Shown here: in pieces, positions 42,890 through 64,000 of the stretch
How positions within the stretch are numbered: the stretch's first letter is position 1
Layout of the letters: every line of letters starts with the position of its first letter
Source of the DNA: Clostridia bacterium
GTDB lineage: Bacteria; Bacillota; Clostridia; Christensenellales; Aristaeellaceae
Length of the DNA: 64,000 nt
Assembly: GCA_017448975.1 (NCBI GenBank)
Contig: JAFSKN010000028.1
Span: forward strand, 2,035 to 66,034
Direction of reading: 5' to 3'
The notes under the pieces: model-generated
What the model saw: the letters and a program-made list of their open reading frames with translations, nothing else
The model's database searches: none
Told to the model about the DNA's origin: nothing
Program-made: the position numbers and the translations under genes

Positions 42890-42899
42890 ACTACCTCCG

Positions 42900-46888: not shown

Positions 46889-46917
46889 GTAGCTTTCCAA
46901 GAGATCATAAATCTCTT

Positions 46918-48683: not shown

Positions 48684-48786
48684 AATATATCGTTGTTAAA
48701 CCGCAAATATGAAATACATTTTCCTTGTAATTCCTATATGCTTTATGTATAATGGACGTGGAAGAATAATGGGAGGTTGACGTTCG

Positions 48787-49245: not shown

Positions 49246-49283
49246 GTAAAAAAACAAAAGAAAAAACAGAAAGGGGCATCACC

Positions 49284-49562
49284 ATGAACAAGCGCGAACT
49301 CATCGAAACAGTATCCTCCAAAGCGGAAATCACAAAGAAAGAAGCTGATGCGGTCGTCAATGCGACCCTGGACGCGATCATTGAAGGACTTGCCTCCGAA
49401 GGCAAGGTGATCATCCCCGGCTTCGGTTCCTTTGAAGTGCGGAACAAGACCGCCCGTGAGGCCCGCAATCCCCGTACTGGCGAAAAGATCAAAATTGCCG
49501 CGAAGAGAGCGCCTGCGTTCAAGCCCGGCAAAGCGATGAAAGACGCCGTGGAAAAGAAATAA
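49284..49562 (+). CDS. hup: HU family DNA-binding protein
   Basis: MNKRELIETVS.., ..FGSFEVRNKTAREARNPRTGEKIKIAAKRAPAFKPGKA. Confidence 0.9.
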   Translation: MNKRELIETVSSKAEITKKEADAVVNATLDAIIEGLASEGKVIIPGFGSFEVRNKTAREARNPRTGEKIKIAAKRAPAFKPGKAMKDAVEKK

Positions 49563-49577
49563 GGAGCGGGCATAGGA

Positions 49578-50129
49578 ATGGAAATCGAAGGAAAGCATGC
49601 CGTCATTACCCCCGAAGGCGTATTCATCATCGGCACCTACGATGAAAATGGCATTCCTAACGCCATGAACGCAGCTTGGGGTATGCAGAGCGACATGGGT
49701 GAAATCACCCTGATGCTGTCCAAGCACAAGACCACCGAAAACTTTGAAAAGACCGGGGCGTTCACCGTTGCGTTTGGCACAGCAGACACTGTTCTGATTT
49801 CCGATTATTTTGGCGTGGAAACCGGCAGCAAGGTCAACAAGATCGAAAAAGCCGGGTGTCATGTCCATAAGAGCGCTCATGTAAACGCCCCGATCATCGA
49901 AGAATACCCTCTGACGCTGGAATGTAAGGTGCGTTCCTGGAACCCGGAAACGGGTTATCTGATCGGAGAAATCGTGGCGTCTCAAGCTGATGAGTCCATT
50001 TTAACCGACGGCAAGGTGGATCTGAGCAAGCTGCGTCCTATTATCTTCGATCCTGCCGCTGGAGCTTACCGCGTGGTTGGAGAAATTGTCGGGAAAGCAT
50101 TTCATGACGGTTTGAAGTTAAAGCAGTGA
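49578..50129 (+). CDS. flavin reductase family protein
   Basis: 183-aa split-barrel-like protein. Assignment from recalled family features (PNAMNAAWG..). Confidence 0.65.
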   Translation: MEIEGKHAVITPEGVFIIGTYDENGIPNAMNAAWGMQSDMGEITLMLSKHKTTENFEKTGAFTVAFGTADTVLISDYFGVETGSKVNKIEKAGCHVHKSAHVNAPIIEEYPLTLECKVRSWNPETGYLIGEIVASQADESILTDGKVDLSKLRPIIFDPAAGAYRVVGEIVGKAFHDGLKLKQ

Positions 50130-50195
50130 CATATTTCGGTTAATCAAAGGGCTGCCGCAGAAAAAAACATCTGCGGCGGTTCGTTCATTTCCCAC

Positions 50196-51146
50196 TCATG
50201 ACGCCCTTTTCTGCGGAATGGAGGCCATGATCGTTTCCGCAAAGGGCGTATCGCTGACTGCCTGCTGACGTTCCTCCATGCTGGTGTGGACATAGCGGTT
50301 GGTGACGTACACGGTGGAATGGCCGCCGACGTCCCGGGCCATGGCGGAGCCGCCCGCTTGATCCACGGCGGTCAGCAGGGTGTGGCGGAAGATATGCACG
50401 CCTGTTTTCAGGTTCAGGCGCTGCTGCTTGGCCGCGAGGGATTTCCATAATGTTTTCCGATCCAGTCGGTTCCCCTTTTGCGACAGGAACAGCGGATCGT
50501 CCGGCTTCGCATCCTGCCGCCCGTTCAGATACCGATCGATGCAGGGAGCCACGAAGTCCGCGACGCTGACATGGGCCCAGTTTCCCCCTTTACGGAGGCA
50601 GAACAGGTCGCCCTGGCGGATTCCCTCCATTTGGCTGATGTTCAGGGCGCAGACCTCAAATGCCCTGAGGCCGCTGCCCAGGATCAGGGCGATAATGGCG
50701 GCGTCCCGAAGATCGTTATGCTTGGGACGGGGACCGGATACCGCCTCGATCAGCGCTTTGACCTCCTCTGCGGTATACCGCTTCTGGGCCTGCTTTTCAA
50801 GGACTTCCGGCGTCTTTTTTTCCTTGACGCAGTGCAGGACTTGCGAAGGGTCTTTTTTGATCATCCCGATGCCCTTCATGCAGGAAAAGAAGCGTTTCAG
50901 GATGACGATATAATTGTTCCGGGTGCTGACCGTCCTGTCTTCGGCAGCCAATTCCTGCAAATAGGCTGAAAGGTGAAGGCCCTTGATGCGGCCGATATCC
51001 TCCGGCTTCAGGCTCAGGCCATGCTGCTCCTGCAAATAGCGGTCAAACCGCCGCAGAAAGGAACCGTACTGCTGTACGGTAGCGGGACGCTTTTCCTCAG
51101 CGGACACATGCGCCTCAAAAAAGGCAACCAGATCCTGAACGGTCAT
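50196..51146 (-). CDS. tyrosine recombinase (XerC/D-like), second recombinase of the element
   Basis: Start MTVQDLV after GGAAGGAGG. Catalytic region ..RAFEVCAL.., HIFRHTLLT, GGHSTVYVTNRYVH. Confidence 0.85.
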   Translation of the reverse strand: MTVQDLVAFFEAHVSAEEKRPATVQQYGSFLRRFDRYLQEQHGLSLKPEDIGRIKGLHLSAYLQELAAEDRTVSTRNNYIVILKRFFSCMKGIGMIKKDPSQVLHCVKEKKTPEVLEKQAQKRYTAEEVKALIEAVSGPRPKHNDLRDAAIIALILGSGLRAFEVCALNISQMEGIRQGDLFCLRKGGNWAHVSVADFVAPCIDRYLNGRQDAKPDDPLFLSQKGNRLDRKTLWKSLAAKQQRLNLKTGVHIFRHTLLTAVDQAGGSAMARDVGGHSTVYVTNRYVHTSMEERQQAVSDTPFAETIMASIPQKRAS

Positions 51147-51337
51147 GCCGCGCCTCCTTCCGTCTGCGGAAGCTCCATGTACTCCCGCAGAATGTCCAGC
51201 ATCCGCAGTGTGATGGGATAAACCCAATGCGTGAGGCCCTTCTCGTAATATTGCCGGAGAAAGGGAATCCGGTGCGCATAGAAGAACTGCTCCAGATAGC
51301 GGTCAGCGGTCACAAAGAAAGTTTTGTTCACCTTCAT
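51143..51337 (-). CDS. hypothetical small protein
   Basis: 64-aa ORF with an ATGA junction to the recombinase gene. Confidence 0.45.
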   Translation of the reverse strand: MKVNKTFFVTADRYLEQFFYAHRIPFLRQYYEKGLTHWVYPITLRMLDILREYMELPQTEGGAA

Positions 51338-51347
51338 CCCTCCTGCG

Positions 51348-51962
51348 TCAGTGTTCGTGAAAAACTACAGCTTCTCCCTGCTTCAAATCCCAGCAGCTCA
51401 TCCCGGTGATCACGCAGTCGCCGCAGTAGGACGGGCAGAGGCGGGCGTTTTCGGGGATCGGGGCCGCTTCATGCCTGAAACGGATGTGAGCGACGGGCAG
51501 ATCATACGGATTTTCCGGCTGGAAAGAGCCCCAGGCGCTCAGTACCACGGTCAGGTTATCGGGCAGCGCGCCATGAGCCGTGATATAGGCGTTGACCAGT
51601 TCGTATTTCTTGGTAAAGCACAAAAACCGGGTGTTATGCAGGTTCCGGGCGATCCGCACCATCATGGCCAGATAATCCGCGTCCGGGATGTCGCCGGAGG
51701 AATGCCAGCGGAAGAAGCGGGAACGGAACGCGGCGATGGTCACCTCCTGCTCAAAGAACTGGGGATCACAGTGCCAAAGCTCCAGATTGGTTTCCAGATA
51801 GGCGCGGTTCCGCATAAAGCTGAACCGTCCCCGGCGGGCATAGCATTTCTTAAAGCAAGGCGCGTCCTTCCGGCAAGTGCAGCCCACCGGAAGATTCACA
51901 GAAGGAATATCCGCACCCAGCTTGGAAACGCCGTAGGAAATATGCACATGATCGTGAACCAT
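51348..51962 (-). CDS. GP88-family-like Cys-rich protein
   Basis: HISYGVSKLGADIPSVNLPVGCTCRKDAPCFKKCYA resembles the phage Gp88 family, from memory. Confidence 0.45.
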   Translation of the reverse strand: MVHDHVHISYGVSKLGADIPSVNLPVGCTCRKDAPCFKKCYARRGRFSFMRNRAYLETNLELWHCDPQFFEQEVTIAAFRSRFFRWHSSGDIPDADYLAMMVRIARNLHNTRFLCFTKKYELVNAYITAHGALPDNLTVVLSAWGSFQPENPYDLPVAHIRFRHEAAPIPENARLCPSYCGDCVITGMSCWDLKQGEAVVFHEH

Positions 51963-52039
51963 ACTGCCTCCTTTGCGCGAAAAAAGCGGCTCCCGTGATC
52001 GAGAGCCGCCTGTGCGGTGTGTGTCTGCAAAAGGAGCCG

Positions 52040-52342
52040 TTATGCCGCCGTTTCCTCCTCCTCCGCCGGATAGCAGCCGGGCAGCACTTCCTCAAAGCCG
52101 CAAAAATACTGCCACAGGTAATCCGCTGTATCATAAGCGGGAAGGTGTCGGAAAAAATCGCTGTCCGTAAAGCCGGGAATATCCTCCTTCATTTCTTCTT
52201 CCACAAATTCCAGGAAACCGTCAAAGAACGCGGCGACGATCCTGCGATCCAGTCCCAGGGAGTTTTCGTAATCGCTGTAATAGAGAGAGTTCAGCACGAT
52301 TTCCAGCCGGAGCTTCCATAATTGTGCCTGTGTGAGGGGCAT
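52040..52342 (-). CDS. hypothetical protein
   Basis: 100-aa ORF, tightly packed in the minus-strand operon. Confidence 0.4.
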   Translation of the reverse strand: MPLTQAQLWKLRLEIVLNSLYYSDYENSLGLDRRIVAAFFDGFLEFVEEEMKEDIPGFTDSDFFRHLPAYDTADYLWQYFCGFEEVLPGCYPAEEEETAA

Positions 52343-52371
52343 TTATCTTCCTCCTTCCTGTGCGGTTTTAC

Positions 52372-52674
52372 TCAATGCTGATATAAGGCATCCACCGCAT
52401 CCCGCAGCGCCTGTGCGGAGGGCGGCATACCGGAATCCCGGTAAGCCAGCAGCGGAAAATAGCTGCCGTTTGCCCACACCAGTTCATCTTCCTGAAAGGA
52501 CGGGTGCCAGGCCACGACATACTGAACCGGATCGCCTTCCTTGAAGAGCGTTTCGTCCGTACCGGCCAGCTGCAGGAGCAGCAGCGCATCCCTGCCCACG
52601 GCAATACAGAGATGCGGAATCTCCCGAATTACGAGCTTTTTACCAACCAACTGATTCAGTTCATCCTGCGTCAT
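52372..52674 (-). CDS. hypothetical protein
   Basis: Start placed at MTQDELNQL. The longer track ORF upstream looks like non-coding read-in. Confidence 0.4.
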   Translation of the reverse strand: MTQDELNQLVGKKLVIREIPHLCIAVGRDALLLLQLAGTDETLFKEGDPVQYVVAWHPSFQEDELVWANGSYFPLLAYRDSGMPPSAQALRDAVDALYQH

Positions 52675-52987
52675 ATTCTCCTCCTTCGTATGCCAGGCTG
52701 TATACCCCGCCCGGCCAGCGGACGTCAAACCAAAGCCAAACATCAAAGCGATAGGTTCCAGCGGGAAAGCCCAGGTATTCTTCTTCGATACAGTCTTCAT
52801 CGGCGATGGAAACATCGCTGAAAAGCAGCCAGAGACCGCGCAGTTCTTCCTTGGTATACGCCATGTCCTGACCGCACACTTCCAGACCTTCATATTCCTG
52901 ACATTCGGGGCAATGGCCGGGAATGGTGATTTCCTCTTCCCGGCCAAGCCACCCGCAGCGATTGCAGCGGCAGATTTTCAAGTTCAT
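52661..52987 (-). CDS. zinc-ribbon hypothetical protein
   Basis: MNLKICRCNRCGW..GHCPECQ. Start uncertain; 53023 is possible. Confidence 0.4.
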   Translation of the reverse strand: MNLKICRCNRCGWLGREEEITIPGHCPECQEYEGLEVCGQDMAYTKEELRGLWLLFSDVSIADEDCIEEEYLGFPAGTYRFDVWLWFDVRWPGGVYSLAYEGGEYDAG

Positions 52988-52997
52988 CCCTCCCTCT

Positions 52998-55430
52998 TTA
53001 CGCTGCCTGCAGCATGAAAACATTGTTGTAATAGCTGCCTTCCTTGCTGGCGCCCTGGGAACCGCCCAGACTGTCCAAATATTGTTCGCCGGCTTTGGAT
53101 TTGGAGATATAGAGATAGTAGTTCATGGCGGTAAAGTCCATATCGGCGGCAACAGGCCGGTAATCATGGCTCAGCACAACACGGGCGCCCATTTCCTTCG
53201 CTTTCTCCGCCGCCAGCTCAGCAAACAGCTTCTGCACGGTCTTTTTGGCCAGATCGTCGATGCCGTTGGTGTACAGGCGCTCCAGGAAAACGGCCAGCTC
53301 TTCGCTTTTCTTTTCCGGCTCAACGGCGTCGGGATGGAGCACGTCCGCAAATTCCAGGGACTTGACCGCCCTGCCTCCCGGCGCGGTAAAGCTGCCCTTG
53401 GTCAGGCGCAGCATGGCCCTGGCCACGGGCCTTCCGCCCATGGTGGCGTAGATGATCTTTTTGTTGCTGTCGAAGCAGGCCAGCAGGCAATGGCGGTATG
53501 CGCCATCCTTATAATTCAGGCAAGTGCGCTGGGGAATCTGGCCGATCCGCATGGTGGAGAAGAAATCGTCCCGTTCCTCAGCGTGGATTTTTCCCTGCGT
53601 GATTTCCGTGTTCTCCATCCACCGCCGCTTCTGCTGCTCCGTGATGGGAAAGGACAGCTCCCGCTGAAGATCGTCGCTGTGATACTTTACCTGTTCGTAC
53701 TGCCCCATGAGCAGCGCCCGCACGATCCGGTAAAAGCCCTTGGGATCATGCAGGCCCCGGGAATAATCCATGGAAATGGACGCGCCTTCTTTGCAGAGGA
53801 AGGAAATGATCTCCTGTTCATGCTCCCGCGTAAAATCACCGTCCAGCTGGAGCGCTTCCCGCAGCGCGGCCCAATCCCTGTCCAGACGCTGAATATCCTT
53901 CAGCACCTCCGGCCATGCCGTATATGTTTTCAGCGCTTCATGTTGGCGAAGCATAAAATCCGCTTCGTCGCTGGTGCAGATATCCGGCAGGAACCGCTCA
54001 ACCTGATCGTATACGGACAGGATGCGGACGCAGAGGCGCAGCGTCAGTCCCTTGATGTGCGCAAACTCCTGATCCCGCCAGTCCATCAGATTCTTTGCGG
54101 AGAGGCGGCGGGCCAGCTGGCTGATCTGATCTTCGTTCATTTCTTCATCCAGCAGATCGTGCTTGAGCAGCTGCCGGATGGTCAGCAGCCGGTCGTCCGT
54201 CCGGGGAATATCCAGCAGGTCATACAGCCGCGCATAGCATTCTTCCGCCTGAAACAGCGTTTTCAGTTCGTCGAAGGTGAACATCCTCCGGCTGAGACGG
54301 TTCAGGCTGCGTCCGTTCTTTTTTCCGCCGATGATTTTCTGGCATTCCGCCAGGTTTTTGAGAGTCAGGGCGTTCAGCCGCGTCCTGGAATAGAAATCCT
54401 GATAGAAGAGCATGGAACTGTCAGAAATGGATTGATAGAGCGGGAAGTTTTCTTCGATCAGGCGCAGGAAAGCTTTCTGCTTATGCGTTAAGGCATAGGC
54501 CAGCAGCTGGAACGCGCCGCCGTGTACCTCCCGGAAGGGAATGCCGATTCCAAAGCTGCCATACAGCGCGTTCAAATAGGCCAGGTAGTTATTGAGCGCC
54601 GCGTCGATTTCTTCCATTGTCCGATTTCGTGTCCAGCGGATAAAGGCTTCCAGTTCTTCCGCTAACGCGCCATTGTCCAGCCAGTATCGGATGAAGATGC
54701 CGGTTCGGTCGCCGTCGGTACCAAGGATGGAATGGATTTTTTCGAGCTTTTCCTTCATTTCCTCAGTAAGAGCATACAGGCTCGTCCAGTCCGCTTCATC
54801 CAGGGAAAGCTCGATCCCAGCGGCGCACCAGGCATCCAGAAGTGACAGACAAATGGGATGGGCGGCAAGCCGAGGCAGCACTTCGGAAAAGGCCGCGCCA
54901 TTGATATACGCTCCTAGACACGGATGGGAAAACAATTCCCGTTCCTCCTCCGGCAATGCGGCCAGCCCGCCCTCCAATTCGTGATAGCAGGCAAACACAT
55001 TATCCGCGGCGGCCTGCAGCGCCTGTTCTGTCCAGCCCCTGTGCAGATAATACCGGGCAAATTCCTGCTTGCCGCGCATGTCCGCCAGCCGCAGGGAAAA
55101 GACATACAGCAATTCCTCCCCGGAATAATCCATGATCCCGCAGCCCGTTTCGTTCGCCGTCGAAAGCCATTGCTCGACCTGATAGGCCGAAACGCCGTTT
55201 CCCAGGAGAAAGCGCAGCCTTTCAGAAAAACCGGGAACGGTGATCAGCGCCGCCTGAATGGAGAAGCATTTCTGATAGGCGTTTTTATCAAGCGCGCCAT
55301 CCTCCAGCTGTTCACAGCAGGCATTGATCTGCTGCTCTGTGTACTCCGCTGTCAGCTTGAGGGCCAGGCCGCTCTGTTCCATTTGGCCGAGAGTTTTCAT
55401 CCGTTCAGTCATCATCAGCATGGTTCGCAT
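52998..55430 (-). CDS. large uncharacterised protein (810 aa)
   Basis: Uninterrupted helical-looking ORF. I recognise no family. Confidence 0.6.
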   Translation of the reverse strand: MRTMLMMTERMKTLGQMEQSGLALKLTAEYTEQQINACCEQLEDGALDKNAYQKCFSIQAALITVPGFSERLRFLLGNGVSAYQVEQWLSTANETGCGIMDYSGEELLYVFSLRLADMRGKQEFARYYLHRGWTEQALQAAADNVFACYHELEGGLAALPEEERELFSHPCLGAYINGAAFSEVLPRLAAHPICLSLLDAWCAAGIELSLDEADWTSLYALTEEMKEKLEKIHSILGTDGDRTGIFIRYWLDNGALAEELEAFIRWTRNRTMEEIDAALNNYLAYLNALYGSFGIGIPFREVHGGAFQLLAYALTHKQKAFLRLIEENFPLYQSISDSSMLFYQDFYSRTRLNALTLKNLAECQKIIGGKKNGRSLNRLSRRMFTFDELKTLFQAEECYARLYDLLDIPRTDDRLLTIRQLLKHDLLDEEMNEDQISQLARRLSAKNLMDWRDQEFAHIKGLTLRLCVRILSVYDQVERFLPDICTSDEADFMLRQHEALKTYTAWPEVLKDIQRLDRDWAALREALQLDGDFTREHEQEIISFLCKEGASISMDYSRGLHDPKGFYRIVRALLMGQYEQVKYHSDDLQRELSFPITEQQKRRWMENTEITQGKIHAEERDDFFSTMRIGQIPQRTCLNYKDGAYRHCLLACFDSNKKIIYATMGGRPVARAMLRLTKGSFTAPGGRAVKSLEFADVLHPDAVEPEKKSEELAVFLERLYTNGIDDLAKKTVQKLFAELAAEKAKEMGARVVLSHDYRPVAADMDFTAMNYYLYISKSKAGEQYLDSLGGSQGASKEGSYYNNVFMLQAA

Positions 55431-57570
55431 CCTCCTCTTCCAGCATCGTCACTTCATTCAGCGTGTTCTGCACATCCGCCTGTTTCATTTCGTCGTACTG
55501 AACGAGCGTGCCCATCAATTCCAGCAGCGTTCCGAATTCCTTTTTATTGAATGTGCGCTGCTTCATGAGAATGCCGGCCAAAAGGCACACGGCGTGCTGG
55601 ACAGCGTAACGCTTGACGCTGGAATAGAAGCAGCGGTCCAGATACTTCATGATGGATTCCAGCGTGCCGTCAAAACGCTCATCCATTTCCTTGCAGGTTT
55701 TGATCCGTTCCGCTTCGGCTTCGGCCACCTTTTTCCGCTGTTTCCTTTCCTCCTCCGCCTGGCGCTCCGCTTCCAGTTCATCAGCGGAAAGAAAGACCCT
55801 TTTCAGGGCGGGGATGTCCGAATGATTCGGCTTTCTTTCCTGGATGGAATCAAAGATGGGCCGTAATTCTGCCCGGTCATACAGATCCAGGGTTTCCGGG
55901 GCGGTCAGGAAGGCAAATACCATATCGTCATAGTCCGAAGGCGCGAACAGGAACACGGATTCGTCGATCCACTCATACAGCCTGCGGTTTTCCTCCCGGG
56001 TAAGGAAAGCCCGCTGATAGCGCACCTCCTTCTTGTGATTGGAATACCCATAAATGCCCCTGGAGGCGGAAGAAAACGCTTCATGAAAGGATTTGTCTTG
56101 AAAGAAGGAGCGAAGCTGCCGCATCTCGAACGTGGAAAAGAACGACTGCCAGAAGTCAAAGGCGGGACGGGTCTTGACGCCGGAAACCATATCCCAGACA
56201 TACCGCAAGGGCGAATACTGGTATCTGGTGTCCTGCTCATCCTTGTGTTCATTGAAGAAATCCCACAGGGTGACAGCGCAGAACCGCACGCAGATGGCAA
56301 AGATATCTTCCTCGTTATATGAAAAAACCCGGAATGAATCCGTATAACCATCACCCGTCAGTTTTTCATATTTATCCAGCCATGCGCGGAAGCTCTCGGC
56401 TGTAAGGCCTTTCTGCGCCTGGAGCTGCTCCCTGAATACTTCATGGTATTTTTCCTTCGGCAGTTCCCTGGCCAGCGCATCCCAGCGGTCATCCAACGCA
56501 TCGAAAGGCAGGCTGTCCTTCCATTCCAGATCCCGGAGCATCCAGACCATGATTTTCGGACAGACAATGTGAACAGCCTTGGCCAGCGCCATGCGCATGC
56601 CGGAGTTGCCCTCGTATTTGATTTTATACTCCTGATAGCGTTCCAGCAGCCAGGCCGCGTATTCCAGCATAGAATCGTCTGGCGGAACCTGCGCGTTCAT
56701 GCAGGAGAGGACAAAGGCGGATGCCAGCTTTTCCGCCGGGATAGAATCCGGCATCACATGATAGTATTGCAGCTTCCTGTCCCACACGAACAGCGAATTG
56801 AGGTAAAGGATGTCCAGCTTGGTATATCCCGCCTGAAACAGATCGCTGTGGGCGGTGTCCTTTTCCCGCACATAGCCCTTGGCCAGCGCAAAAAGCGCCC
56901 GCATGAGCGCGTTGTCCTTCTTGCGGCATTTCTTGATCGCTTTCGCGCAGCGCTCCAGCAGCCATCCGAAGATACCGCCGTTGCCCGCCGCATTCAGCGT
57001 CCTGCCTTTGCCCAGCAGCGCCGTCAGGAGAAGAAGGATCTGCTCATAGTACGGTTCAGCGCGTTCCAGGGAACAGAGGAAGAAGATCAGTTCTTCCGTC
57101 CGCTGATAGGTTCGATTCAGCAAAGCTTGAAGCCTCGCTTCCTTCTCTTCACCCTCCGAAAGCAGGAACAGGGAAACGGCGATATAGACGTCATTCTTTT
57201 CTTTTTTCAGAATCGCCTTCATAAAGCTGGCCCGCTGCTTGCCCACAAACATATTGGGCGTCAGGATCGGCGCGGTCCAGGCCAGTGCCAGAGCCAGGGC
57301 GCGGGTGTTTTCCGGTGTATCGCCCAGTTTTTCCCCATACCGTTCCAGCAATTCGCCTACATAGCGGATGCTGTAGGGTTCAAAAAACGCCGCGCTGTCA
57401 GCCTTCTCATACCAGGGAAGATCACATAAAACATTCTGAACCTGCGATATCTGCTTGGGCGCTTCCGTGGTTGTGATGGCCAGCTGTACGGCAGCGTTGA
57501 ACAATGGGATGTTGAACTGTTCTTCATAGGCGCTGCACCTTCCGGCAGCGGGACAAGGGTTTTGCTTCAT
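55405..57570 (-). CDS. large uncharacterised protein (721 aa)
   Basis: Uninterrupted ORF overlapping the next gene by 26 nt. I recognise no family. Confidence 0.6.
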   Translation of the reverse strand: MKQNPCPAAGRCSAYEEQFNIPLFNAAVQLAITTTEAPKQISQVQNVLCDLPWYEKADSAAFFEPYSIRYVGELLERYGEKLGDTPENTRALALALAWTAPILTPNMFVGKQRASFMKAILKKEKNDVYIAVSLFLLSEGEEKEARLQALLNRTYQRTEELIFFLCSLERAEPYYEQILLLLTALLGKGRTLNAAGNGGIFGWLLERCAKAIKKCRKKDNALMRALFALAKGYVREKDTAHSDLFQAGYTKLDILYLNSLFVWDRKLQYYHVMPDSIPAEKLASAFVLSCMNAQVPPDDSMLEYAAWLLERYQEYKIKYEGNSGMRMALAKAVHIVCPKIMVWMLRDLEWKDSLPFDALDDRWDALARELPKEKYHEVFREQLQAQKGLTAESFRAWLDKYEKLTGDGYTDSFRVFSYNEEDIFAICVRFCAVTLWDFFNEHKDEQDTRYQYSPLRYVWDMVSGVKTRPAFDFWQSFFSTFEMRQLRSFFQDKSFHEAFSSASRGIYGYSNHKKEVRYQRAFLTREENRRLYEWIDESVFLFAPSDYDDMVFAFLTAPETLDLYDRAELRPIFDSIQERKPNHSDIPALKRVFLSADELEAERQAEEERKQRKKVAEAEAERIKTCKEMDERFDGTLESIMKYLDRCFYSSVKRYAVQHAVCLLAGILMKQRTFNKKEFGTLLELMGTLVQYDEMKQADVQNTLNEVTMLEEEDANHADDD

Positions 57571-57600
57571 AAGCGCCTCCTTCGTGTTTGTTCAGTCCGA

Positions 57601-58461
57601 TCAGGCAGGCATATGCTCCATCAGATAAGCTTCCTCGCTGTCATCGCATTCCTCCAGCCTGCCAATCAGCCCAGCGCACTCATCCGGCAGATAGGAGGGA
57701 AGCTCCTTGAGCATATCGTCCACATCGCCCAGGAAGCCCCAGCAGGAGTCCTCCTCCTCTCCGTCTTTATATAGGCGGAAGCCGTAGCACTCGCCCCGGA
57801 GATACATATCGTAACTTTTGACTTCCGCTTCCAGGACTTCTTCCGCCTTTTTGACCGTTTCCTTGTTCACGGCCCCGTAGTTCTTTTGGATTTCCTCCCG
57901 ATCCGCGTAGGTGTAGCCCACCTGCCCGGAATCCCACCTATCCCCAAAGTCGTGGGTTGACATGGTAATTCCGCTGTGGTCAAAGAGGAAAAGCGGGAGG
58001 ATGACCAGATCCTCCCGTTCTCCCAACAGTTCCTTCAGGTCGTCGATGGTCAAAGCGTTCAGCATATCGTCGAAGAACCAGCCGCCGTCATTGAGCTGGC
58101 TTTTCGGGGCGGAGCTTTCCAAATCCCATCTGGGCTTGGAATCTCCAATGATCGTGCGAAGGCACCAGTAGGTATACAGCTCCCATTCGTGGGTGTGCCG
58201 GTTGTATTCCAGCCTCGCGCCCCGGGCTTTACCGGATTTCAGGAAGGAAATCAGCCGCTTGGCGTTGTCGTTCACAGATTTCCGATAAAGATCACGCAGG
58301 AAGTCTTCGGGATCGTCGTAGTTGTGCTTATCTCCCAGGCTGTACCGGCTGTGCCAGCAGACCATTTTTCCAAAGGGGTCGCAGTCTTCCCGGGGGTTCA
58401 GGGGAAAATCATCGTCCTCCACAAACAGCGTGTACGGCGCTTCATGGGCGGCCAAAATCAT
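57601..58461 (-). CDS. hypothetical protein (286 aa)
   Basis: ORF with an acidic N-terminus (FVEDDDFPLNPREDCDPFG). Confidence 0.5.
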   Translation of the reverse strand: MILAAHEAPYTLFVEDDDFPLNPREDCDPFGKMVCWHSRYSLGDKHNYDDPEDFLRDLYRKSVNDNAKRLISFLKSGKARGARLEYNRHTHEWELYTYWCLRTIIGDSKPRWDLESSAPKSQLNDGGWFFDDMLNALTIDDLKELLGEREDLVILPLFLFDHSGITMSTHDFGDRWDSGQVGYTYADREEIQKNYGAVNKETVKKAEEVLEAEVKSYDMYLRGECYGFRLYKDGEEEDSCWGFLGDVDDMLKELPSYLPDECAGLIGRLEECDDSEEAYLMEHMPA

Positions 58462-58496
58462 GCGCTCATCTCCTTCTGTGCATATTGCGAGTATAA

Positions 58497-59363
58497 TTAT
58501 GCAGCTTCCGTCTGCTCTGCCGCGTCCAGGTTCAGGATCAGGCGGGCAGCCTTTTCCGCTTTGCCCGCGGCTGAAACGATCAGGCGGCTGTCGTTCTTCA
58601 ATGCCGACAGCCAGTTCTGGATATAGGCAGTACTGTTTTTAAAGGTAGCGGGCGATTCAATGCCCAAGTCGTTCATGAGGAGGGCCGCGCCGATCTCGGC
58701 AACCAGTTCTTCCTTGGAATAATCGCTGTCTCCAAAGAAAGCGCCTTTGGTCAGGCGGTTCAGGCGCTTTTCATGGCCGGTGGAATGAGTGCATTCATGG
58801 AAGGCGGTGGAATAGTATTCCCGGATATCGGGAAACTGTTCCCGCAGTGGAAGGTGGACTTCATCCAAACTGGGCGAATAGTAGGCCTTGTCCTGCTTGG
58901 CGTGGAGGATGCGGCACCCGGAACGGAGACTGTAATCCGAAAGCACCTTTTCCGCTTCCTGGATGGGATCGGAAAAGGTCAGCTTGGGTTCGGTGTATTT
59001 GGGCTTCACATTTTCACACTGGTCGATATGGAACACATGGTAGTACCGCAGCAACGGAACGATTTTCGTGACTTCCTTGCCTTCCTTATTCGTCTCCTTC
59101 ACAGGCAGCGGCTTCCAAAAGACCACAAAGCTGGCCTTTTCTCCCTTGCGGATACTGCCGCCTGCGTCCAGGGCCTGCTTGAAGGTGAGATACTCCCCGG
59201 GCTTGAACAGCAGGAGCTGATTCAGCACCGAATACGGCCTGCCGGTGGAACGGCTGTAAGCGCCGGTGCGCACGCCTGTCCAGGGCTTCTGCCAGGGGAT
59301 CAGGCCCTTTTCCAGCTCCTCCAGGATGCGGTTCGTAACGATCTCATACACGTTGACGCCCAT
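58497..59363 (-). CDS. ArdC-like antirestriction protein (ssDNA-binding N-domain + zincin metalloprotease)
   Basis: N-terminal IVTNRILEELEKGLIPWQKPW and HECTHSTGH metalloprotease motif. Confidence 0.7.
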   Translation of the reverse strand: MGVNVYEIVTNRILEELEKGLIPWQKPWTGVRTGAYSRSTGRPYSVLNQLLLFKPGEYLTFKQALDAGGSIRKGEKASFVVFWKPLPVKETNKEGKEVTKIVPLLRYYHVFHIDQCENVKPKYTEPKLTFSDPIQEAEKVLSDYSLRSGCRILHAKQDKAYYSPSLDEVHLPLREQFPDIREYYSTAFHECTHSTGHEKRLNRLTKGAFFGDSDYSKEELVAEIGAALLMNDLGIESPATFKNSTAYIQNWLSALKNDSRLIVSAAGKAEKAARLILNLDAAEQTEAA

Positions 59364-59387
59364 GCGCGATCCCTCCTTCTGTGATTG

Positions 59388-59717
59388 TCAGTCCTGCTTT
59401 TTCGGCAGCTCCCCGGTGATGAAAGCGTTATACAGCCTGCCGCCGTCCTGCACACCCTGAAGATACGTCTGAATTGCCAATGCCGCGTTGACAGCATTGA
59501 AAGCGCATTCCAGTCCATCGAAATCAAAAGGGGCGCAATGGAGCTTGTCCATCAGGGCTTGTTCCTGCTCGGCGATGTTCTCCCGCGCCGCCGTGTATTC
59601 CGGGTAATCGTCAGGGCTGCGCTGCATCATTTGCTCCACGTCGCCCATTCTGCGATCAGCAATATCCACGGCGTATTCCCGCAATTTCTCCGGCCAGTTA
59701 TCAAGGTACAAAGTCAC
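59388..59717 (-). CDS. hypothetical protein
   Basis: 109-aa ORF. Confidence 0.4.
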   Translation of the reverse strand: MTLYLDNWPEKLREYAVDIADRRMGDVEQMMQRSPDDYPEYTAARENIAEQEQALMDKLHCAPFDFDGLECAFNAVNAALAIQTYLQGVQDGGRLYNAFITGELPKKQD

Positions 59718-59920
59718 GCCTCCTTTTCATCCGTCAGTTCTTCATACTCTTTGCCGCAGCCCGTACAAGTGAAGGGGCCATAGGGCTTTTCTGCGTCATA
59801 GATCGCGCTCTCCAGAGAAGGGCCGCAGTTCTCCAGAAATTCGCCGTTCCCATCCACCACCACGTCCGCCCGGATCAGCTGATGCCCGATAAAGCGGGTA
59901 CATCCGCAGGTACAACGCAT
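59714..59920 (-). CDS. zinc-ribbon hypothetical protein
   Basis: CTCGC..CTGCG pairs; 68 aa. Confidence 0.4.
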   Translation of the reverse strand: MRCTCGCTRFIGHQLIRADVVVDGNGEFLENCGPSLESAIYDAEKPYGPFTCTGCGKEYEELTDEKEA

Positions 59921-59937
59921 ATATCTCCCTCCCGGAA

Positions 59938-60555
59938 TCAGATATAAAAGGTCGTCTGCGGCGTAAGCAGCCAGTAGCCAATATCCGTGGCGTTCATCAC
60001 ATCCCGAACGGCCTGCTCATAATCCACCGCCGCCGCGTTCTCCATATAGGAAGAAATGGAATCCTCCAGACTGCCGATTTCCTGTTCCTTCAGTCGCCGT
60101 TCCGTCAGCACCAGGATACGGGCTTCCGGCATATCCTCCATAGCGACGAAATGAAACGTCAGGACAGGCAGTTCGTCATTTTCGCCGGGATGCGTCAGGC
60201 GGGTAAAGGGCGGGAAAACGGAAATCTGATCGTATTCCTCCGTGTCTGTGCCGTGAAAACGAATATGCTGACGATCCTCGTCATCCGGGCATTCATACTG
60301 CAATTCCAACAGATAGCCCGTATGCTGTCCAGCGTACTCGGAAAGAGCTTCCCGGATGGTGTCATAGGCATGAAAGCTCTCATTTCCAAAGCTCATGATA
60401 TAGGACTGGTTCTCGCCAGTATTGGAATCAAATTCTTCAAATCCGAGTTCATTGATCATGTCCTGCAGGGCTTCCTTTTCAGGAACGGAAAGCCCTTTTC
60501 CGAAAGAATCCCAGCCGAACAGTTCATAGTTCGTGCGTTTGCCCATTCTTTTCAC
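59938..60555 (-). CDS. hypothetical protein
   Basis: 205-aa ORF. Confidence 0.45.
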   Translation of the reverse strand: MKRMGKRTNYELFGWDSFGKGLSVPEKEALQDMINELGFEEFDSNTGENQSYIMSFGNESFHAYDTIREALSEYAGQHTGYLLELQYECPDDEDRQHIRFHGTDTEEYDQISVFPPFTRLTHPGENDELPVLTFHFVAMEDMPEARILVLTERRLKEQEIGSLEDSISSYMENAAAVDYEQAVRDVMNATDIGYWLLTPQTTFYI

Positions 60556-60776
60556 CTCGATTCAATCATCAGCAGCGGAATGATTTTTCCATCCGCTTCA
60601 TGCTGTTCAACGTTCAGTCCATGAACAGGAGCGTTGAGATAGGCGTCGTACCCCTTCCGTTCCAGCATGAAATGCGGATACGGAATGAACAGGGTGCTGT
60701 TGTCCTGACGGACGAGGATGATTTGCAGATCGCTGTCAGGAGCAAACAGCGAAAGCAACTGCTTTACGGTCAGCAC
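60552..60776 (-). CDS. hypothetical protein
   Basis: 74-aa ORF with a 4-nt overlap to its neighbour. Confidence 0.4.
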   Translation of the reverse strand: MLTVKQLLSLFAPDSDLQIILVRQDNSTLFIPYPHFMLERKGYDAYLNAPVHGLNVEQHEADGKIIPLLMIESR

Positions 60777-61069
60777 GGCCGCGCCTCCTCATCTTCAGTT
60801 TTCCTGGGCGGAATATACCGGCCATTCAAAAGCACGCCGCGCTCCCGGGCGGTCATGCAGAAGGGATCATGATTCTCGTCAATGAACTGAAAAATACCCT
60901 CTGGCGTCAGACCGGCTTCGTGCATTTCTTCAATGGAATCATAGCAGTTGTTATAGTCAGCGCCGTAGTCGTCGTAGATGCGGTAGCCAAGCGTAGGCTC
61001 TCCATTCGGGCTCCCATCGCTGTCCAGATCCTGAAAGCGGGTAAACTGAACAGAAACGATATTACTCAT
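60770..61069 (-). CDS. hypothetical protein
   Basis: Start placed at MSNIVSVQF. The upstream part of the track ORF is out of context. Confidence 0.4.
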   Translation of the reverse strand: MSNIVSVQFTRFQDLDSDGSPNGEPTLGYRIYDDYGADYNNCYDSIEEMHEAGLTPEGIFQFIDENHDPFCMTARERGVLLNGRYIPPRKTEDEEARPC

Positions 61070-62030
61070 GGCAAAGCTCCTCTTCCTCCGGCAGAAATAC
61101 GATTTCCGCCCTGACAATGGCCCTGGCGTCGTTGGTATAATAGAAGCAGTCGTAGCTGCCGTCACCGTATCCGCTGGAGGAAACCACGCCGAAGGGCAGC
61201 ACCCCGGCGCCGATGGGCGAAAGCGTAATATCACAGCAATAGTGATACCATGGCTCGGAGGGATCATCCGCAGGGGCGGGCTTCGCGTCGGGAATAACGG
61301 AGGAATCCTGATAATGCGCTGCATCAAAGAACCCGGCCTGGCCGCTGTCTACGCCAACCTCAAAGGGCGCTTTCTGCCGGGTCAGGTCCTGGGTGTTTTC
61401 GCAGGATTCGTGAACGATGGTCAGCTTGGCGACGCGCTGCCCCCAATCTCCGCAATCATGCTTGACGATGGAAGCATACCAGGAGCCATTCTCGACATTG
61501 GTAAGCTCTCCGCGGCACCAAACGTCAGGATCATAGCAGGGGTCGGAAACGGTGAGCTTCCCGGAGGTAACCTCAAAGGAGCCAAGCTCCAGCGTTTCGC
61601 GGACGATCCGGGCCAGCTGCGCCTGATGGGTAATGGCGGCGGACTGGTTCAGTACATCGCAGAGTTCTTTGGCGTAAGACATAAAATCCTCCGCCATGAT
61701 TTCGCAGGCATCCTCGGTAAGCAGCTCCGCGTCGTCCAGCAGCAGGATTTCGCCCATCTCCTTTTCCATTTCATCATAGGGAATCCACAGGATGCCTTCC
61801 CGCACCGGCATGATAAAGCCGCCCGCCGATTCCCCTTCACTGATGGGAAAACGCCAGATCAGTTCGTTCCCGTACTTCTCATGCTGTTTTTCACGCAGAT
61901 CGGCCAGAGCGAAATCTGTCCCGCCGCCGTCCCAGATCATTTCGATCAGTTCGTCCTTAGTGGGCAGTTCCGCCGGGTTGAGCGAAAAGTTCATATACTT
62001 CCAGGTTTTCTCCATTTTCATCCTCCTCAC
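61062..62030 (-). CDS. DUF4241-like protein
   Basis: SGKLTVSDPCYDP and SSSGYGDGSYDCFY motifs recalled from DUF4241. Confidence 0.4.
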   Translation of the reverse strand: MRRMKMEKTWKYMNFSLNPAELPTKDELIEMIWDGGGTDFALADLREKQHEKYGNELIWRFPISEGESAGGFIMPVREGILWIPYDEMEKEMGEILLLDDAELLTEDACEIMAEDFMSYAKELCDVLNQSAAITHQAQLARIVRETLELGSFEVTSGKLTVSDPCYDPDVWCRGELTNVENGSWYASIVKHDCGDWGQRVAKLTIVHESCENTQDLTRQKAPFEVGVDSGQAGFFDAAHYQDSSVIPDAKPAPADDPSEPWYHYCCDITLSPIGAGVLPFGVVSSSGYGDGSYDCFYYTNDARAIVRAEIVFLPEEEELCHE

Positions 62031-62172
62031 GCCGCCTGTTCATTGGTTTCCGCAAGATATTCCATGTATTCTTCCTCCGTGGAAAAGAGTATACGCCTGC
62101 CATCCGGCAGAAAACCGATATAGCCTTGACTGGTCAGATAGCCATGGGGACGGAACATACCATCATCCTCCA

Positions 62173-62694
62173 TCAGCAAGTGCATTGGGTTGACCATTGA
62201 TCGTTCTGAAGCATTTTGGCGGCGGTTTTGCAGGCAGTATCCAGCAGGTCAATATACCGCACCTCTTTCGCGGTAATCACCGTCGCTCCGCCACCCACAT
62301 AACGCAGCTTTTCATGTCCCGACTCAAAAATCAGGATCGCGTCATCATCTGCCACATGCTGCTGGAGCCCGGTAACGAAAGCGTCGTAATCATTTTCAAC
62401 ATCTTCGCTTTCTTCTTCGTCTTCATCTTCTTCATCTGTGGTGGAAACAGAAACAGTGTCCGTGTCTTCCGTTTTTGTTTCATCTTCATCCGTGACAGGA
62501 ACTGGAATCCCGGCAATGCAGCCATAAAGACCGAAACCGAAGAGGGTATTGCCCTGATCGTCCTTTTCATCGTCCCACAGGTCAATGCCATCTTCATCCC
62601 CCGCCACTTTCCCCATAAATTCCCGGAAAGCAGCTTCATCCTTCACGTGGAAATAGTTCGTGCGGGTATTGCCATAATAGTTTGACATGCTCAT
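62173..62694 (-). CDS. hypothetical highly acidic protein
   Basis: 173 aa with a long Asp/Glu tract (DEDETKTEDTD..DEEDEDEEESED). Confidence 0.45.
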   Translation of the reverse strand: MSMSNYYGNTRTNYFHVKDEAAFREFMGKVAGDEDGIDLWDDEKDDQGNTLFGFGLYGCIAGIPVPVTDEDETKTEDTDTVSVSTTDEEDEDEEESEDVENDYDAFVTGLQQHVADDDAILIFESGHEKLRYVGGGATVITAKEVRYIDLLDTACKTAAKMLQNDQWSTQCTC

Positions 62695-62918
62695 TCCTCC
62701 TCGTCGTCTGATCTCAGCGGCGCGTCGGGATTGTAGACCTGATTAACTTCCGGCTCATAGCAGGAAAGATCAAAGGAACCGTCCACATAGTCCGAATCAG
62801 TCGGAAGCGGGATGTGATCGGATGTTTCCTGAAAAATGTCCATCGCGTCGTCGATGGAGGCGGCATCCACTTCCACAAAGCCGCAAACTTCCCAGCAAAC
62901 GGGCAATTTGATTTTCAC
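62691..62918 (-). CDS. hypothetical small acidic protein
   Basis: 75 aa with a GTG start. Confidence 0.4.
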   Translation of the reverse strand: MKIKLPVCWEVCGFVEVDAASIDDAMDIFQETSDHIPLPTDSDYVDGSFDLSCYEPEVNQVYNPDAPLRSDDEEE

Positions 62919-62938
62919 TGTACGTCCATACCTCCCAT

Positions 62939-63157
62939 CTATTCCGTCAATTCACCGGTTTCTTTCAGGTTGTTTACCGCTTCCTCGATTGCTGCCCATC
63001 CAGCTTCGGTCATGCCGTCGGTAAAATGATGATCGTTCTCACAGGCACACCGAACTGCCTGAATGTTGTCGTCGTTCGCCGGAATACCCATTTCTTCCAG
63101 CTTCACAGCGATATCACCATTACACCATCTGACGACACCAAACCAGTCTTCTTCCAT
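62939..63157 (-). CDS. hypothetical small acidic protein; the only gene in the window that ends in TAG
   Basis: 72 aa with stop TAG at 62939-62941. Read-through would add 8 residues before a TGA. Confidence 0.4.
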   Translation of the reverse strand: MEEDWFGVVRWCNGDIAVKLEEMGIPANDDNIQAVRCACENDHHFTDGMTEAGWAAIEEAVNNLKETGELTE

Positions 63158-63158
63158 T

Positions 63159-63464
63159 TCATTCTCCTTCAGAACATTGATTTAATATATCCCCAATGGC
63201 TTCATCCAGTGCCGCTGTCCAAGCCATATCGTATTTGTCGATGTTGCGGCGCATCTCATAGGCGATATCATCAAACAACGTCTCGATTTCGGCCATTGTT
63301 TTTCCATAGGAAGCGATCAGATCCGACTCCTCCATAAACGCAAAAAGATCCTGCACGTCGGTTCTGTCATACTCATGCTGTTGTTCCTCATAGGCGTTCA
63401 GGCGCTCATCATCTGTAAGCTCGAACTCATGAATTGCACCATTCACTTCACGCGTAATAACCAT
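63159..63464 (-). CDS. hypothetical small acidic protein
   Basis: 101-aa ORF. Confidence 0.4.
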   Translation of the reverse strand: MVITREVNGAIHEFELTDDERLNAYEEQQHEYDRTDVQDLFAFMEESDLIASYGKTMAEIETLFDDIAYEMRRNIDKYDMAWTAALDEAIGDILNQCSEGE

Positions 63465-63490
63465 AGCCTCACCTCCCTGTGCGAAAAGTG

Positions 63491-63874
63491 TTATTCCTCC
63501 AGTTGCGCGTTCGTGGGATGCCAGTCTTCATCCCAGGAAACGTCATCCACCTTCATGGTTTCGTCGGCAATCCGCATCGCTTCATCCGCAGAGACCGCCT
63601 TGATCTCCGCATATCCGCCGCGGCTGAAGAACACACCGTAGTTCCGGAGTACGGTAAAGGTGCCATCGCCGTTTTCCTGGAGCTCATACTTTTTCTCCCC
63701 AACCAGCACATACTGATCCGTCAGGATGTCCAGCGATTCCAGGATGCTTTCCGGCAGGTTGGCCTGCTCAATATCGCTGACGATGCCGGTTTCTTCGTCA
63801 AAGAGCGCAACGGTCGGAATTGCCATACCATTGTCCCAAACGGAAACAAAGGTCGCCTGAATCTGTTTGCTCAC
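63491..63874 (-). CDS. hypothetical protein
   Basis: 127 aa with a GTG start after GGAGGAGG. Confidence 0.45.
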   Translation of the reverse strand: MSKQIQATFVSVWDNGMAIPTVALFDEETGIVSDIEQANLPESILESLDILTDQYVLVGEKKYELQENGDGTFTVLRNYGVFFSRGGYAEIKAVSADEAMRIADETMKVDDVSWDEDWHPTNAQLEE

Positions 63875-64000
63875 TGTTTTTCCTCCTCCATCAAATAGGC
63901 ATAAACATAGAAATCATAGTTGCCGGGGGTGGGCGTACAGCGGATGCAGAAGAGATACGTGGAATTGGTTACGGTGTAGCCCACAGTTCCGCTGTCTCCT
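63871..64000 (-). CDS. hypothetical protein, 3' end only (continues beyond window)
   Basis: Open minus-strand frame ending ..YAYLMEEEKQ with a TGA that overlaps the next GTG start. Confidence 0.3.
   Translation of the reverse strand, partial: GDSGTVGYTVTNSTYLFCIRCTPTPGNYDFYVYAYLMEEEKQ

Follow-up and report, generated by a model that had tools for sequence, protein, structure and literature searches.

The window analyzed here (64,000 nt of contig JAFSKN010000028.1 of assembly GCA_017448975.1, positions 2,035-66,034, forward strand) comes from a rumen Clostridia bacterium, and with high confidence we interpret it as holding the left part of a single large temperate phage that is integrated at a tRNA-Pro gene, reads TAG as leucine and has a genome divided by code. 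The phage spans at least 42 kb in the window and its extension, and probably 73 kb or more overall. None of the 23 host genes (1-31.8 kb) contained an in-frame TAG or used TAG as terminal stop, which places the host on the standard code. The integration site, the integrase and the recoded block that follows it (block A) comprise these features:

31896-31972, plus strand: host tRNA-Pro(GGG), integration site, attL side (ARAGORN and Rfam)
32033-33238, minus strand: tyrosine integrase (Pfam Phage_integrase 7e-25; PHROG_1 7e-74)
33555-46656, minus strand: block A, recoded replication and nucleotide metabolism, 15 ORFs (Pfam), including the next 13 genes
33555-34088, minus strand: RuvC
34066-34386, minus strand: MazZ-like protein
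34386-35033, minus strand: NUDIX protein
35023-35541, minus strand: NrdG-like protein
35924-37840, minus strand: NrdD
37791-38432, minus strand: ThyX
38429-38785, minus strand: RemA-like protein
38945-42109, minus strand: DnaE
42116-42889, minus strand: PD-(D/E)XK protein
42900-44690, minus strand: primase-helicase
44680-45234, minus strand: sigma-like factor
45248-45613, minus strand: SSB
45610-46656, minus strand: AAA_24 protein
38824-38908, minus strand: amber suppressor tRNA, anticodon CUA (ARAGORN; Rfam tRNA, 54 bits)
46861-46887, minus strand: strong terminator-like hairpin just upstream of the first block A gene, 12 pairs followed by a T run (consensus scan only)

Gene models with TAG read through contained 27 in-frame TAG codons in the 15 minus-strand ORFs of block A (33555-46656) and none in the 20 minus-strand ORFs of the neighboring block B (50196-64000), among them those for an 810-aa and a 721-aa protein. 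Expressed as TAG over the sum of leucine and TAG codons, the values were 27/388 in A and 0/441 in B (Fisher p = 7.6e-10); 16 further genes in the 9.9 kb to the right of the window also lacked in-frame TAG, giving 0/651 for the extended block (p = 1.6e-12). The sharp TAG boundary proposed in the sequence-only reading was thus borne out, as was its TAG-rich neighbor, for which that reading counted 29 codons, a difference that lies within start-codon choice. Block A was interrupted by TAG exclusively, never by TAA or TGA, and TAG positions were common to the relatives L013, L014 and L015; a stop-recoded phage is expected to show just this, one type of in-frame stop in essential, conserved genes at sites shared among relatives. 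The recoded set had been described as replication, nucleotide metabolism and excision: the first two were recovered and virion genes join them in relatives, while no excision gene was found. Standard-code gene callers broke up the block A genes in every public contig looked at.

The suppressor tRNA is 85 nt long and of type II, with a long variable arm, a tRNA-Leu-like D arm, A73 and an encoded CCA end, and in an alignment with four orthologous suppressors and tRNA-Leu sequences it resembled tRNA-Leu. A tRNA(CUA) occurs at the same position in L013, L014, L015 and L050, and the anticodon of this phage-encoded tRNA matches the recoded stop; the orthologues carry compensatory changes in the anticodon stem, and in the fully scanned 80-kb relative the suppressor in A was the sole tRNA found. 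When block A TAG sites were compared with residues in homologues, which came from loci without a detected suppressor tRNA or from loci not scanned for one, leucine was present at 216 of 293, isoleucine at 26, valine at 24 and glutamine at none. Portal TAG sites 72, 102 and 222 were compared with about 115 standard-code homologues, of which more than 93% have leucine there. These alignments and the tRNA indicate that TAG is leucine in this phage.

Genetic code 15, in which TAG is glutamine and which is the common amber recoding of phages, did not fit the same counts (glutamine 0/293, leucine 216/293), the portal sites or the type II tRNA-Leu-like suppressor. Pyrrolysine decoding did not match either, as tRNA-Pyl has a short variable loop and TAG would be expected at Pyl or Lys-like sites but aligned here to leucine, isoleucine and valine. 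The label 'Pyl' that ARAGORN gave to the suppressor is owed to the anticodon alone.

The TAG-free block and the islet that separates it from block A comprise these features:

46918-47886, minus strand: esterase, variable cargo (Pfam)
48043-48133, no strand assigned: back-to-back sigma-70-like promoters between the esterase and TetR genes (promoter scan)
48102-48683, plus strand: TetR regulator, divergent from the esterase, variable cargo (Pfam)
48787-49245, plus strand: XRE-type HTH protein, candidate repressor (Pfam)
49239-49562, plus strand: HU (Pfam)
49578-50129, plus strand: flavin reductase (Pfam)
50149-50182, no strand assigned: terminator-like hairpin after the flavin reductase gene (terminator scan)
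50196-51227, minus strand: Xer-like tyrosine recombinase, last gene of block B (Pfam Phage_integrase 1.7e-21)
51143-64000, minus strand: block B, continuing at least 9.9 kb past the window (profile searches and TAG count)
51348-51962, minus strand: GP88-like protein
52998-55430, minus strand: 810-aa protein
55405-57570, minus strand: 721-aa protein
57601-58461, minus strand: 286-aa protein
58497-59363, minus strand: ArdC anti-restriction protein
61062-62030, minus strand: DUF4241 protein
62939-63157, minus strand: the sole block B ORF ending in TAG, with 7 residues added by readthrough (readthrough gene models)

As had been noted from the sequence, a lower-GC islet and a second recombinase lie at the boundary: the islet (46657-50195) has a GC content of 0.494, compared with 0.54-0.57 to either side, and the recombinase gene forms the edge of B. 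Variable cargo in the islet is limited to the TetR/esterase part; window positions 46695-48708 have no counterpart in the 85%-identical relative. The opposite-strand cassette of XRE, HU and flavin reductase genes (48787-50129) is TAG-free and is kept in the IMG/VR 80-kb relative. The code boundary owes its sharpness to its position at a break between transcription units, with this convergent cassette and terminator-like hairpins separating B from A.

Besides its named genes, block B contains many small ORFs, and searches gave no known function for most of its proteins, including the 810-aa and 721-aa proteins. A terminal TAG was confirmed for the ORF at 62939-63157, as first read, with the next in-frame stop 7 codons on; together with its neighbor (63159-63464) it is absent from the 85%-identical relative. 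The block was followed past the window on L001 (positions 1-9874), which is 100% identical to the window across a 10.5-kb overlap. This extension carries DUF2958, a reverse transcriptase of group UG27 (RT_UG27, 3.8e-97) and RT-associated genes (RTas337 and RTas346), without an in-frame TAG. The predicted functions of ArdC and RT_UG27 would fit suppressor-independent roles for B.

Comparison with relatives revealed a conserved partition. Over positions 73851 to 33595, the window and its extension align collinearly with the IMG/VR 80-kb contig at about 85% nucleotide identity, equal in A and B, even though that contig has a serine recombinase as integrase. Three related viral contigs (80 kb, 38 kb and 64 kb) share the order B, A, integrase and the same TAG partition with differing integrases, and the 38-kb and 64-kb relatives keep order and partition at 41-65% amino acid identity in B. 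In contigs of 64 and 69 kb, the late genes (TerL, exonuclease, sigma-like) contain in-frame TAG and lie on the opposite strand, some 5 kb away from where B starts, so that in these two relatives the TAG-free block sits between two recoded blocks. It had been suggested that the boundary would blur if genes further right were interrupted by TAG; TAG is absent from the next 9.9 kb, and the recoded late genes of the relatives form a second sharp boundary with no blurring. Across five genomes, TAG per 1000 codons was 3.4-9.0 in late genes, 0-1.3 in B and 4.3-6.3 in A; where late, B and A follow one another on single contigs, the values were 8-9, 0-0.3 and 5-6, a block-wise dual coding. A point against the proposed layout is that in the closest relative (85% identity) a 21-kb low-GC block with IS transposase and ECF sigma genes separates B from the late genes, and assembly L073 has a glycosyltransferase-like ORF where homology to the 85%-identical relative stops. 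The phage in the window was covered to 9.9 kb past the end of the window, and its late module and attR were deduced from the relatives; by analogy, its late module would resemble theirs.

Block B might be TAG-free by history and not by selection, as a fast-exchanging accessory or mosaic region drawn repeatedly from standard-code phages or plasmids that is too recent to have acquired TAG or is kept portable between codes. We consider this unlikely. The 38-kb relative indeed lacks the 810-aa, 721-aa, ArdC and RT genes, both ArdC and DUF2958 are typical of conjugative elements, and B is more plastic than A, with indels between the window and its 85%-identical relative and with shared proteins 41-65% identical, compared with 65-77% in A. 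However, core B genes (b67, b226, b123, b286, b68, b191 and b64) and the Xer-like recombinase are kept in order and TAG-free across deeply diverged relatives, a span over which A gained and lost TAG sites (DnaE 4/183/844/906 versus 353/542/833/895, for example). The equal divergence of A and B from the closest relative also speaks against this reading, and the codon use of B correlates better with that of A (0.94) than with that of the host (0.86).

The sequence-only reading had left a choice between two elements in tandem and a single element with code-compatible and suppressor-dependent gene sets. In our judgment it is very improbable that B is a standard-code integrative element that uses the recombinase at 50196-51227 as integrase and sits beside or within a recoded prophage, even though the boundary is marked exactly by a second tyrosine recombinase and a low-GC islet, and ArdC and RT genes are common island cargo. 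No att-like direct repeats were found at the A/B junction. The 28-mer at the tRNA-Pro 3' end is single-copy in the window and absent from the 9.9-kb extension, so that no second att or attR was found in that part of the contig. The synteny comparison called for at the outset showed B and A traveling together in all three related contigs despite their differing terminal integrases, with recoded late genes on the other side of B in relatives. The best PDB relatives of the supposed second integrase are XerC-like, XerA and XerD proteins; it is kept between B and A in two of the three relatives, including the 38-kb contig, and its orthologues, at 88% and 45% amino acid identity, diverge in step with their neighbors. 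It belongs to the conserved core of the lineage as an Xer-like gene and is not the integrase of a second island. Blocks A and B therefore belong to one phage. That block A is a decaying prophage remnant with nonsense mutations is hardly credible, since the fragmentation of every A gene by standard-code gene callers is accompanied by interruption by TAG alone, by TAG sites at conserved leucine positions, many of them common to relatives 70-92% identical, and by a tRNA(CUA) with compensatory stem changes kept alongside them.

We favor, with moderate confidence, a large temperate phage lineage of rumen and gut Clostridia in which a natural TAG-to-leucine code, provided by a phage tRNA-Leu, would be used as a switch of three blocks: 12-25 kb of contiguous TAG-free sequence (early, anti-defense and lysogeny genes) would lie between recoded replication and virion genes, and the gate would not be confined to lysis but would take effect as early as genome replication and the sigma-like factors of the phage. 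The layout begins with the TAG-free integrase, which has no in-frame TAG and a TAA stop, followed by block A, with about 6 TAG per 1000 codons and the suppressor gene, and by the TAG-free opposite-strand islet of regulator and cargo genes. Block B then provides at least 24 kb without TAG, with the Xer-like recombinase, ArdC, the UG27 reverse transcriptase and its partner genes, and many small ORFs; the fifth block, seen in relatives, comprises the virion and packaging genes, which are transcribed divergently and contain 8-9 TAG per 1000 codons.

TAG-free genes would be those that need translation without the suppressor, right after DNA entry or from the resting prophage. Full-length products of the replication and virion genes and of two sigma-like factor genes would be made only after the suppressor tRNA builds up, and the code change may therefore act as a translational gate on the lytic program. 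Most likely, B, the integrase and the islet form the suppressor-independent set (early, anti-restriction, defense and lysogeny), with middle and late genes gated by the suppressor. 'Early' for B and 'middle' for A are candidate classes; sigma-70-type promoter scans gave no enrichment in either block. The suppressor gene lies downstream of six recoded block A genes, and a simple 'tRNA first' order is not evident.

SPbeta-like phages are large temperate siphoviruses of Firmicutes that encode ribonucleotide reductase and thymidylate synthase and have a terminal integrase gene, of the serine or tyrosine type, and divergent early and late clusters. The phage described here is similar to them in its DnaE-type polymerase, nucleotide genes, terminal integrase and divergent clusters. 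The similarity is remote: the best phage matches of DnaE were in large Bacillus and Geobacillus phages (39-41% identity), and the virion module of relative L061 has precomputed Pfam hits to YonB and YomX_C. To our knowledge, no stop-codon recoding occurs in SPbeta-like phages. NCBI translation table 16, of chlorophycean mitochondria, also assigns TAG to leucine; it is the same codon reassignment in an unrelated system, where the code applies across the organelle and does not depend on a conditional suppressor encoded by a phage.

Gut phages and prophages that recode TAG in standard-code hosts have been described (code 15; Garnet, Topaz, crAss-like and Lak clades), and it was proposed that the host code serves their early and lysogeny genes, with the lytic genes gated (Borges et al., bioRxiv 10.1101/2021.08.26.457843; Nat Microbiol 2022). 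Our phage resembles them in its phage-borne suppressor tRNA(CUA), standard-code host, recoding of only part of the genes, integrase free of in-frame stops and virion genes as the most heavily recoded. It differs in that TAG is leucine instead of glutamine, the prophage is much larger than their 24-kb prophages, and its code-compatible genes form a single contiguous block, at least 24 kb long, with recoded blocks on both sides. In crAss-like phages, several genetic codes have been found to be used block by block with Mgcod (bioRxiv 10.1101/2022.06.29.495998), with contiguous blocks compatible or incompatible with the standard code, as here; ours is another lineage, temperate, with a DnaE-type replication module, Clostridia hosts and leucine. 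No report of TAG as leucine in phages was found in the literature searched.

In practical terms, all public annotations of these contigs split the recoded genes into fragments, and the tRNA carries the wrong ARAGORN label, tRNA-Pyl; the tRNA-Leu(CUA) could serve as a natural amber suppressor in Clostridia genetics. Partial block-wise recoding of phages was already known, and its logic rests mostly on TAG-to-glutamine and TGA-to-tryptophan phages with recoded late and lysis genes. What this lineage would add is a different amino acid assignment, leucine, a temperate phage whose replication machinery itself would depend on the suppressor, and a very clean three-block layout that is kept over deep divergence, which makes selection on the partition testable.

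Host genes fill the first ~31.8 kb of the window (GC 0.585) and are followed by a tRNA gene, an integrase and the phage genes proper. From the integrase to the window end, nearly all genes lie on the minus strand, in the following arrangement:

31896-31972, tRNA-Pro(GGG), after the host genes
32033-33238, minus strand, tyrosine integrase, 60 nt past the tRNA-Pro gene
33555-46656, minus strand, block A, genes for replication and nucleotide metabolism
38824-38908, minus strand, suppressor tRNA inside block A
46657-50195, islet between blocks A and B
46861-46887, terminator-like hairpin just upstream of the first block A gene
46918-48683, divergent TetR/esterase cassette in the islet
50149-50182, terminator-like hairpin
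50196-51227, Xer-like recombinase
50196-64000, minus strand, block B, continuing beyond the window

Exact-sequence matches were found in the NCBI MAG "Clostridia bacterium" (locus tags IJP78_05795 to IJP78_06080 in the window) and in ruminant gut assemblies. The ENA contig scaffold_501 of ERZ28654336 (L001) was 100% identical to window positions 53491-64000 and reached 9,874 b further right.

When gene models were made with TAG read through, block A resolved into 15 full-length genes: RuvC, a MazZ-like dATP/dGTP diphosphohydrolase, NUDIX, NrdG-like, two small ORFs, NrdD and ThyX, together with RemA-like, DnaE, a PD-(D/E)XK nuclease, a primase-helicase, a sigma-like protein, SSB and an AAA_24 ATPase. 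These genes contained 27 in-frame TAG codons and no in-frame TAA or TGA, whereas the 20 minus-strand ORFs of 50196-64000 contained no in-frame TAG (27/388 Leu plus TAG codons in block A vs 0/441 in block B; Fisher p = 7.6e-10). The 16 further same-strand genes of the L001 extension had none either. The sequence-only reading had described this partition correctly; its count of 29 TAG codons became 27 here, a gap within start-codon choice. It was also right that the ORF at 62939-63157 in block B ends in TAG, the next in-frame stop lying 7 codons on. As 0/23 host genes in the window ended in TAG, depletion of TAG stops in block B was uninformative as a test of co-adaptation.

Out-of-frame TAG was counted separately. 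Frame +1 contained 9 TAG per 6,978 codons in block B plus the extension, lower than in block A (16 per 4,371; p = 0.012) and in the host genes (39 per 9,091; p = 0.0004), and the coding strand of window 50196-64000 held only 7 TAG trinucleotides in 13.8 kb. The tetranucleotide CTAG occurred once in 73.9 kb (window 1-64000 plus L001 1-9874), against ~30 expected from trinucleotide counts; the host part (13.9 expected) and block A (10.4 expected) had none, and no TAG codon of block A was preceded by C. The TAG codons of block A crowded the 5' ends of genes, with 9/27 within the first 50 codons (p = 0.03), as did those in the late genes of a relative (L080; 23/38 within the first 100 codons, p = 0.005); start codons set too far upstream may account for part of the clustering.

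The suppressor tRNA, 85 nt long and with the anticodon CUA, is of type II. Its variable arm is long, its D arm resembles the one in bacterial tRNA-Leu, and it has A73 as discriminator and a CCA end that is encoded. ARAGORN labelled it tRNA-Pyl because of the CUA anticodon only, and decoding as Pyl failed when tested, as did code 15 (Gln). Compensatory changes in the anticodon stem distinguish four orthologues of the suppressor in related viral contigs. Where block A has TAG, homologues from loci without a detected suppressor tRNA, or not scanned for one, carried Leu in 216/293 cases, Ile in 26, Val in 24 and Gln in 0, and in suppressor-bearing relatives TAG and Leu codons alternated at these sites. 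The portal protein of the closest relative, an 80-kb IMG/VR contig (3300028833_005988), had TAG at sites 72, 102 and 222, which were Leu in >93% of ~115 standard-code homologues. These sequence comparisons lead us to conclude that TAG would be read as Leu in the phage.

The suppressor gene sits downstream of the first recoded genes of block A. No promoter was identifiable for it, and an Rfam search for a ribozyme beside it returned only the two tRNAs above threshold. In a more distant phage, a tRNA-Leu(UAA) (L041 8109-8190) lies ~1.8 kb upstream of NrdD, roughly where this lineage has its CUA suppressor; no suppressor was found in the fetched L041 locus. The suppressor may have derived from a phage-borne tRNA-Leu.

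Two explanations of the partition had been offered from sequence: two elements in tandem, or one element whose genes are divided by code. The relatives support the second. From 73851 down to 33595, the window plus extension and the 80-kb relative were collinear, with ~85% nucleotide identity in blocks B and A alike; the terminal integrase of the relative is a serine recombinase. The relative had essentially no in-frame TAG in the B-like genes and ~25 in the A-like genes, many at the same codons; across the whole contig, the only tRNA was the suppressor in block A, and 38 TAG were spread over 16 packaging and virion genes. A far more distant relative of 38 kb (B proteins 41-65% identical), considered a fragment because terminal repeats were sought and none found, showed the order B-core, Xer-like recombinase, A and the same partition. 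A 64-kb relative (3300045988_180464) carried a recoded A block with the suppressor (L014) and, on the opposite strand, TerL, a 309-aa protein, an exonuclease and a sigma-like gene, all TAG-interrupted; these late genes lay ~5 kb from the start of B. A 69-kb contig was arranged in the same way, with TerL lying beyond the stretch fetched. Over five genomes, in-frame TAG per 1000 codons amounted to 3.4-9.0 in late genes, 4.3-6.3 in block A and 0-1.3 in block B, the nonzero B value of the 38-kb contig being largely due to TAG stops that the read-through ORF caller had merged. The TAG-free block thus forms a conserved inner compartment of one phage, with recoded compartments on either side. We infer the late module of the window's own phage, and likewise its attR, from the relatives.

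In the 80-kb relative, a 21-kb block at ~13.8-35.3 kb (L060, L010, L008), with 34-43% GC in a phage of ~54% GC, separates the B-like block from the late genes. Its genes include those for an MBL-fold protein, an IS transposase, a PepSY protein and ECF sigma/anti-sigma pairs (three ECF-type sigma factors, with a DUF4367 anti-sigma-like protein). The 7.5 kb of it that were compared were identical in two JGI assemblies, and another assembly had a glycosyltransferase-like ORF at the same point. The block may have been inserted as an island, or it may be an accessory region; block B is tied to the late genes by the 64-kb and 69-kb relatives, which have no such spacer.

At the boundary itself, the islet has a GC content of 0.494. 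Its TetR/esterase cassette has a back-to-back 11/12 sigma-70-like promoter pair, and this 2-kb unit (TetR plus an alpha/beta-hydrolase) is missing from the 85%-identical 80-kb relative, and so seems to have been inserted as cargo at the A/B junction only recently. The islet's opposite-strand cassette, with an XRE-type HTH protein, HU and a flavin reductase, is kept in that relative. The recombinase next to the islet occupies the same position in relatives, and this conservation marks it as a core gene, not the integrase of a second island. Among solved structures, Xer-type enzymes were closest, and the motifs of the usual tyrosine-recombinase catalytic residues were readable in its sequence. 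A reading as an SPbeta MrpR-like repressor was disfavoured, since the best solved relatives were Xer recombinases. The enzyme may resolve multimers, catalyse inversion or play a regulatory role.

The 3' end of tRNA-Pro occurred once in the window and 0 times in the 9.9 kb beyond it; other junction-type repeats were not found. When the MazZ-like protein was used to look for excised or circular copies, every place showed the same integrated context. Rightward of the window, the last complete gene led to L001, and the next gene to a cluster representative with 98% identity that lies on a 2.5-kb contig; a GTDB scan yielded only relatives at 31-36% identity, and a JGI scan the parent contigs of the IMG/VR relative plus one 15-kb contig.

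Block B encodes an ArdC anti-restriction protein and many small ORFs by the divergent region facing the late genes. A reverse transcriptase in the extension (L001 2418-3656) matched PADLOC RT_UG27 (3.8e-97), and downstream of it L001 6304-6861 and 6912-7805 matched the RT-associated families RTas346 and RTas337; together, these look like a candidate defence-type RT system in the TAG-free block. The 810-aa and 721-aa proteins had no match in Pfam, PHROGs, PADLOC or PDB sequence searches; a role as phage RNA polymerase was considered and dropped, with nothing in its support. Downstream of the RT, an ORF-poor stretch of 2.5 kb (L001 3763-6284, ~3.6-6.1 kb past 64000) contained a motif of 35-40 nt (cATCGTAAA..TGaAG....GCGCAaAg.GGaACGGC) in at least 9 scattered copies, 185-630 nt apart, along with three long inverted repeats, and had no Rfam match. 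The repeats may serve as operators or as phage-specific promoters, or belong to RT-associated non-coding RNA units. In block A, window 34066-34386 matched Pfam PF18909, the N-terminal domain of dATP/dGTP diphosphohydrolase (MazZ-like), and adjoins the NUDIX, ThyX and NrdD/NrdG-like genes, a neighbourhood that may point to changes in the nucleotide pools or to base modification in the phage DNA.

It has been proposed that phages start out with the code of the host and change codes later (10.1101/2021.08.26.457843). The same idea would fit here, except that the switch already covers replication. The TAG-free set would comprise the integrase, the islet regulators and block B, functions expected on entry or in the lysogen, when the suppressor would be absent; the suppressor would be needed for the replication genes, two sigma-like proteins and the virion genes. 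We infer these timing classes from gene content and position only; sigma-70 promoter scans of block A, block B and the extension showed no enrichment over shuffles and were uninformative on timing. The absence of TAG-ended genes among the 23 host genes may lower the cost of leaky suppression to the lysogen. In relatives, two recombinases of the TAG-free class end in TAG: the serine integrase of the 80-kb relative (L013 14491-16092), to which suppression would add 8 residues, and the Xer-like recombinase of the 38-kb relative (img38 18854-20002), to which it would add ~20. The code switch might also modify such lysogeny proteins.

The phage falls within a known class, in which stop codons are recoded and codes are used block by block (Borges et al.; Mgcod, 10.1101/2022.06.29.495998; phAss-1, PMC10607447, with TAG = Gln). 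The literature searched, with incomplete coverage, reported phage recoding of TAG to Gln and TGA to Trp and no phage with TAG = Leu, an absence that does not by itself prove novelty. Relative to the known class, the new features of this large temperate phage of Clostridia are the assignment of TAG to Leu, a replication module that is itself recoded, and a TAG-free block with recoded blocks on both sides.
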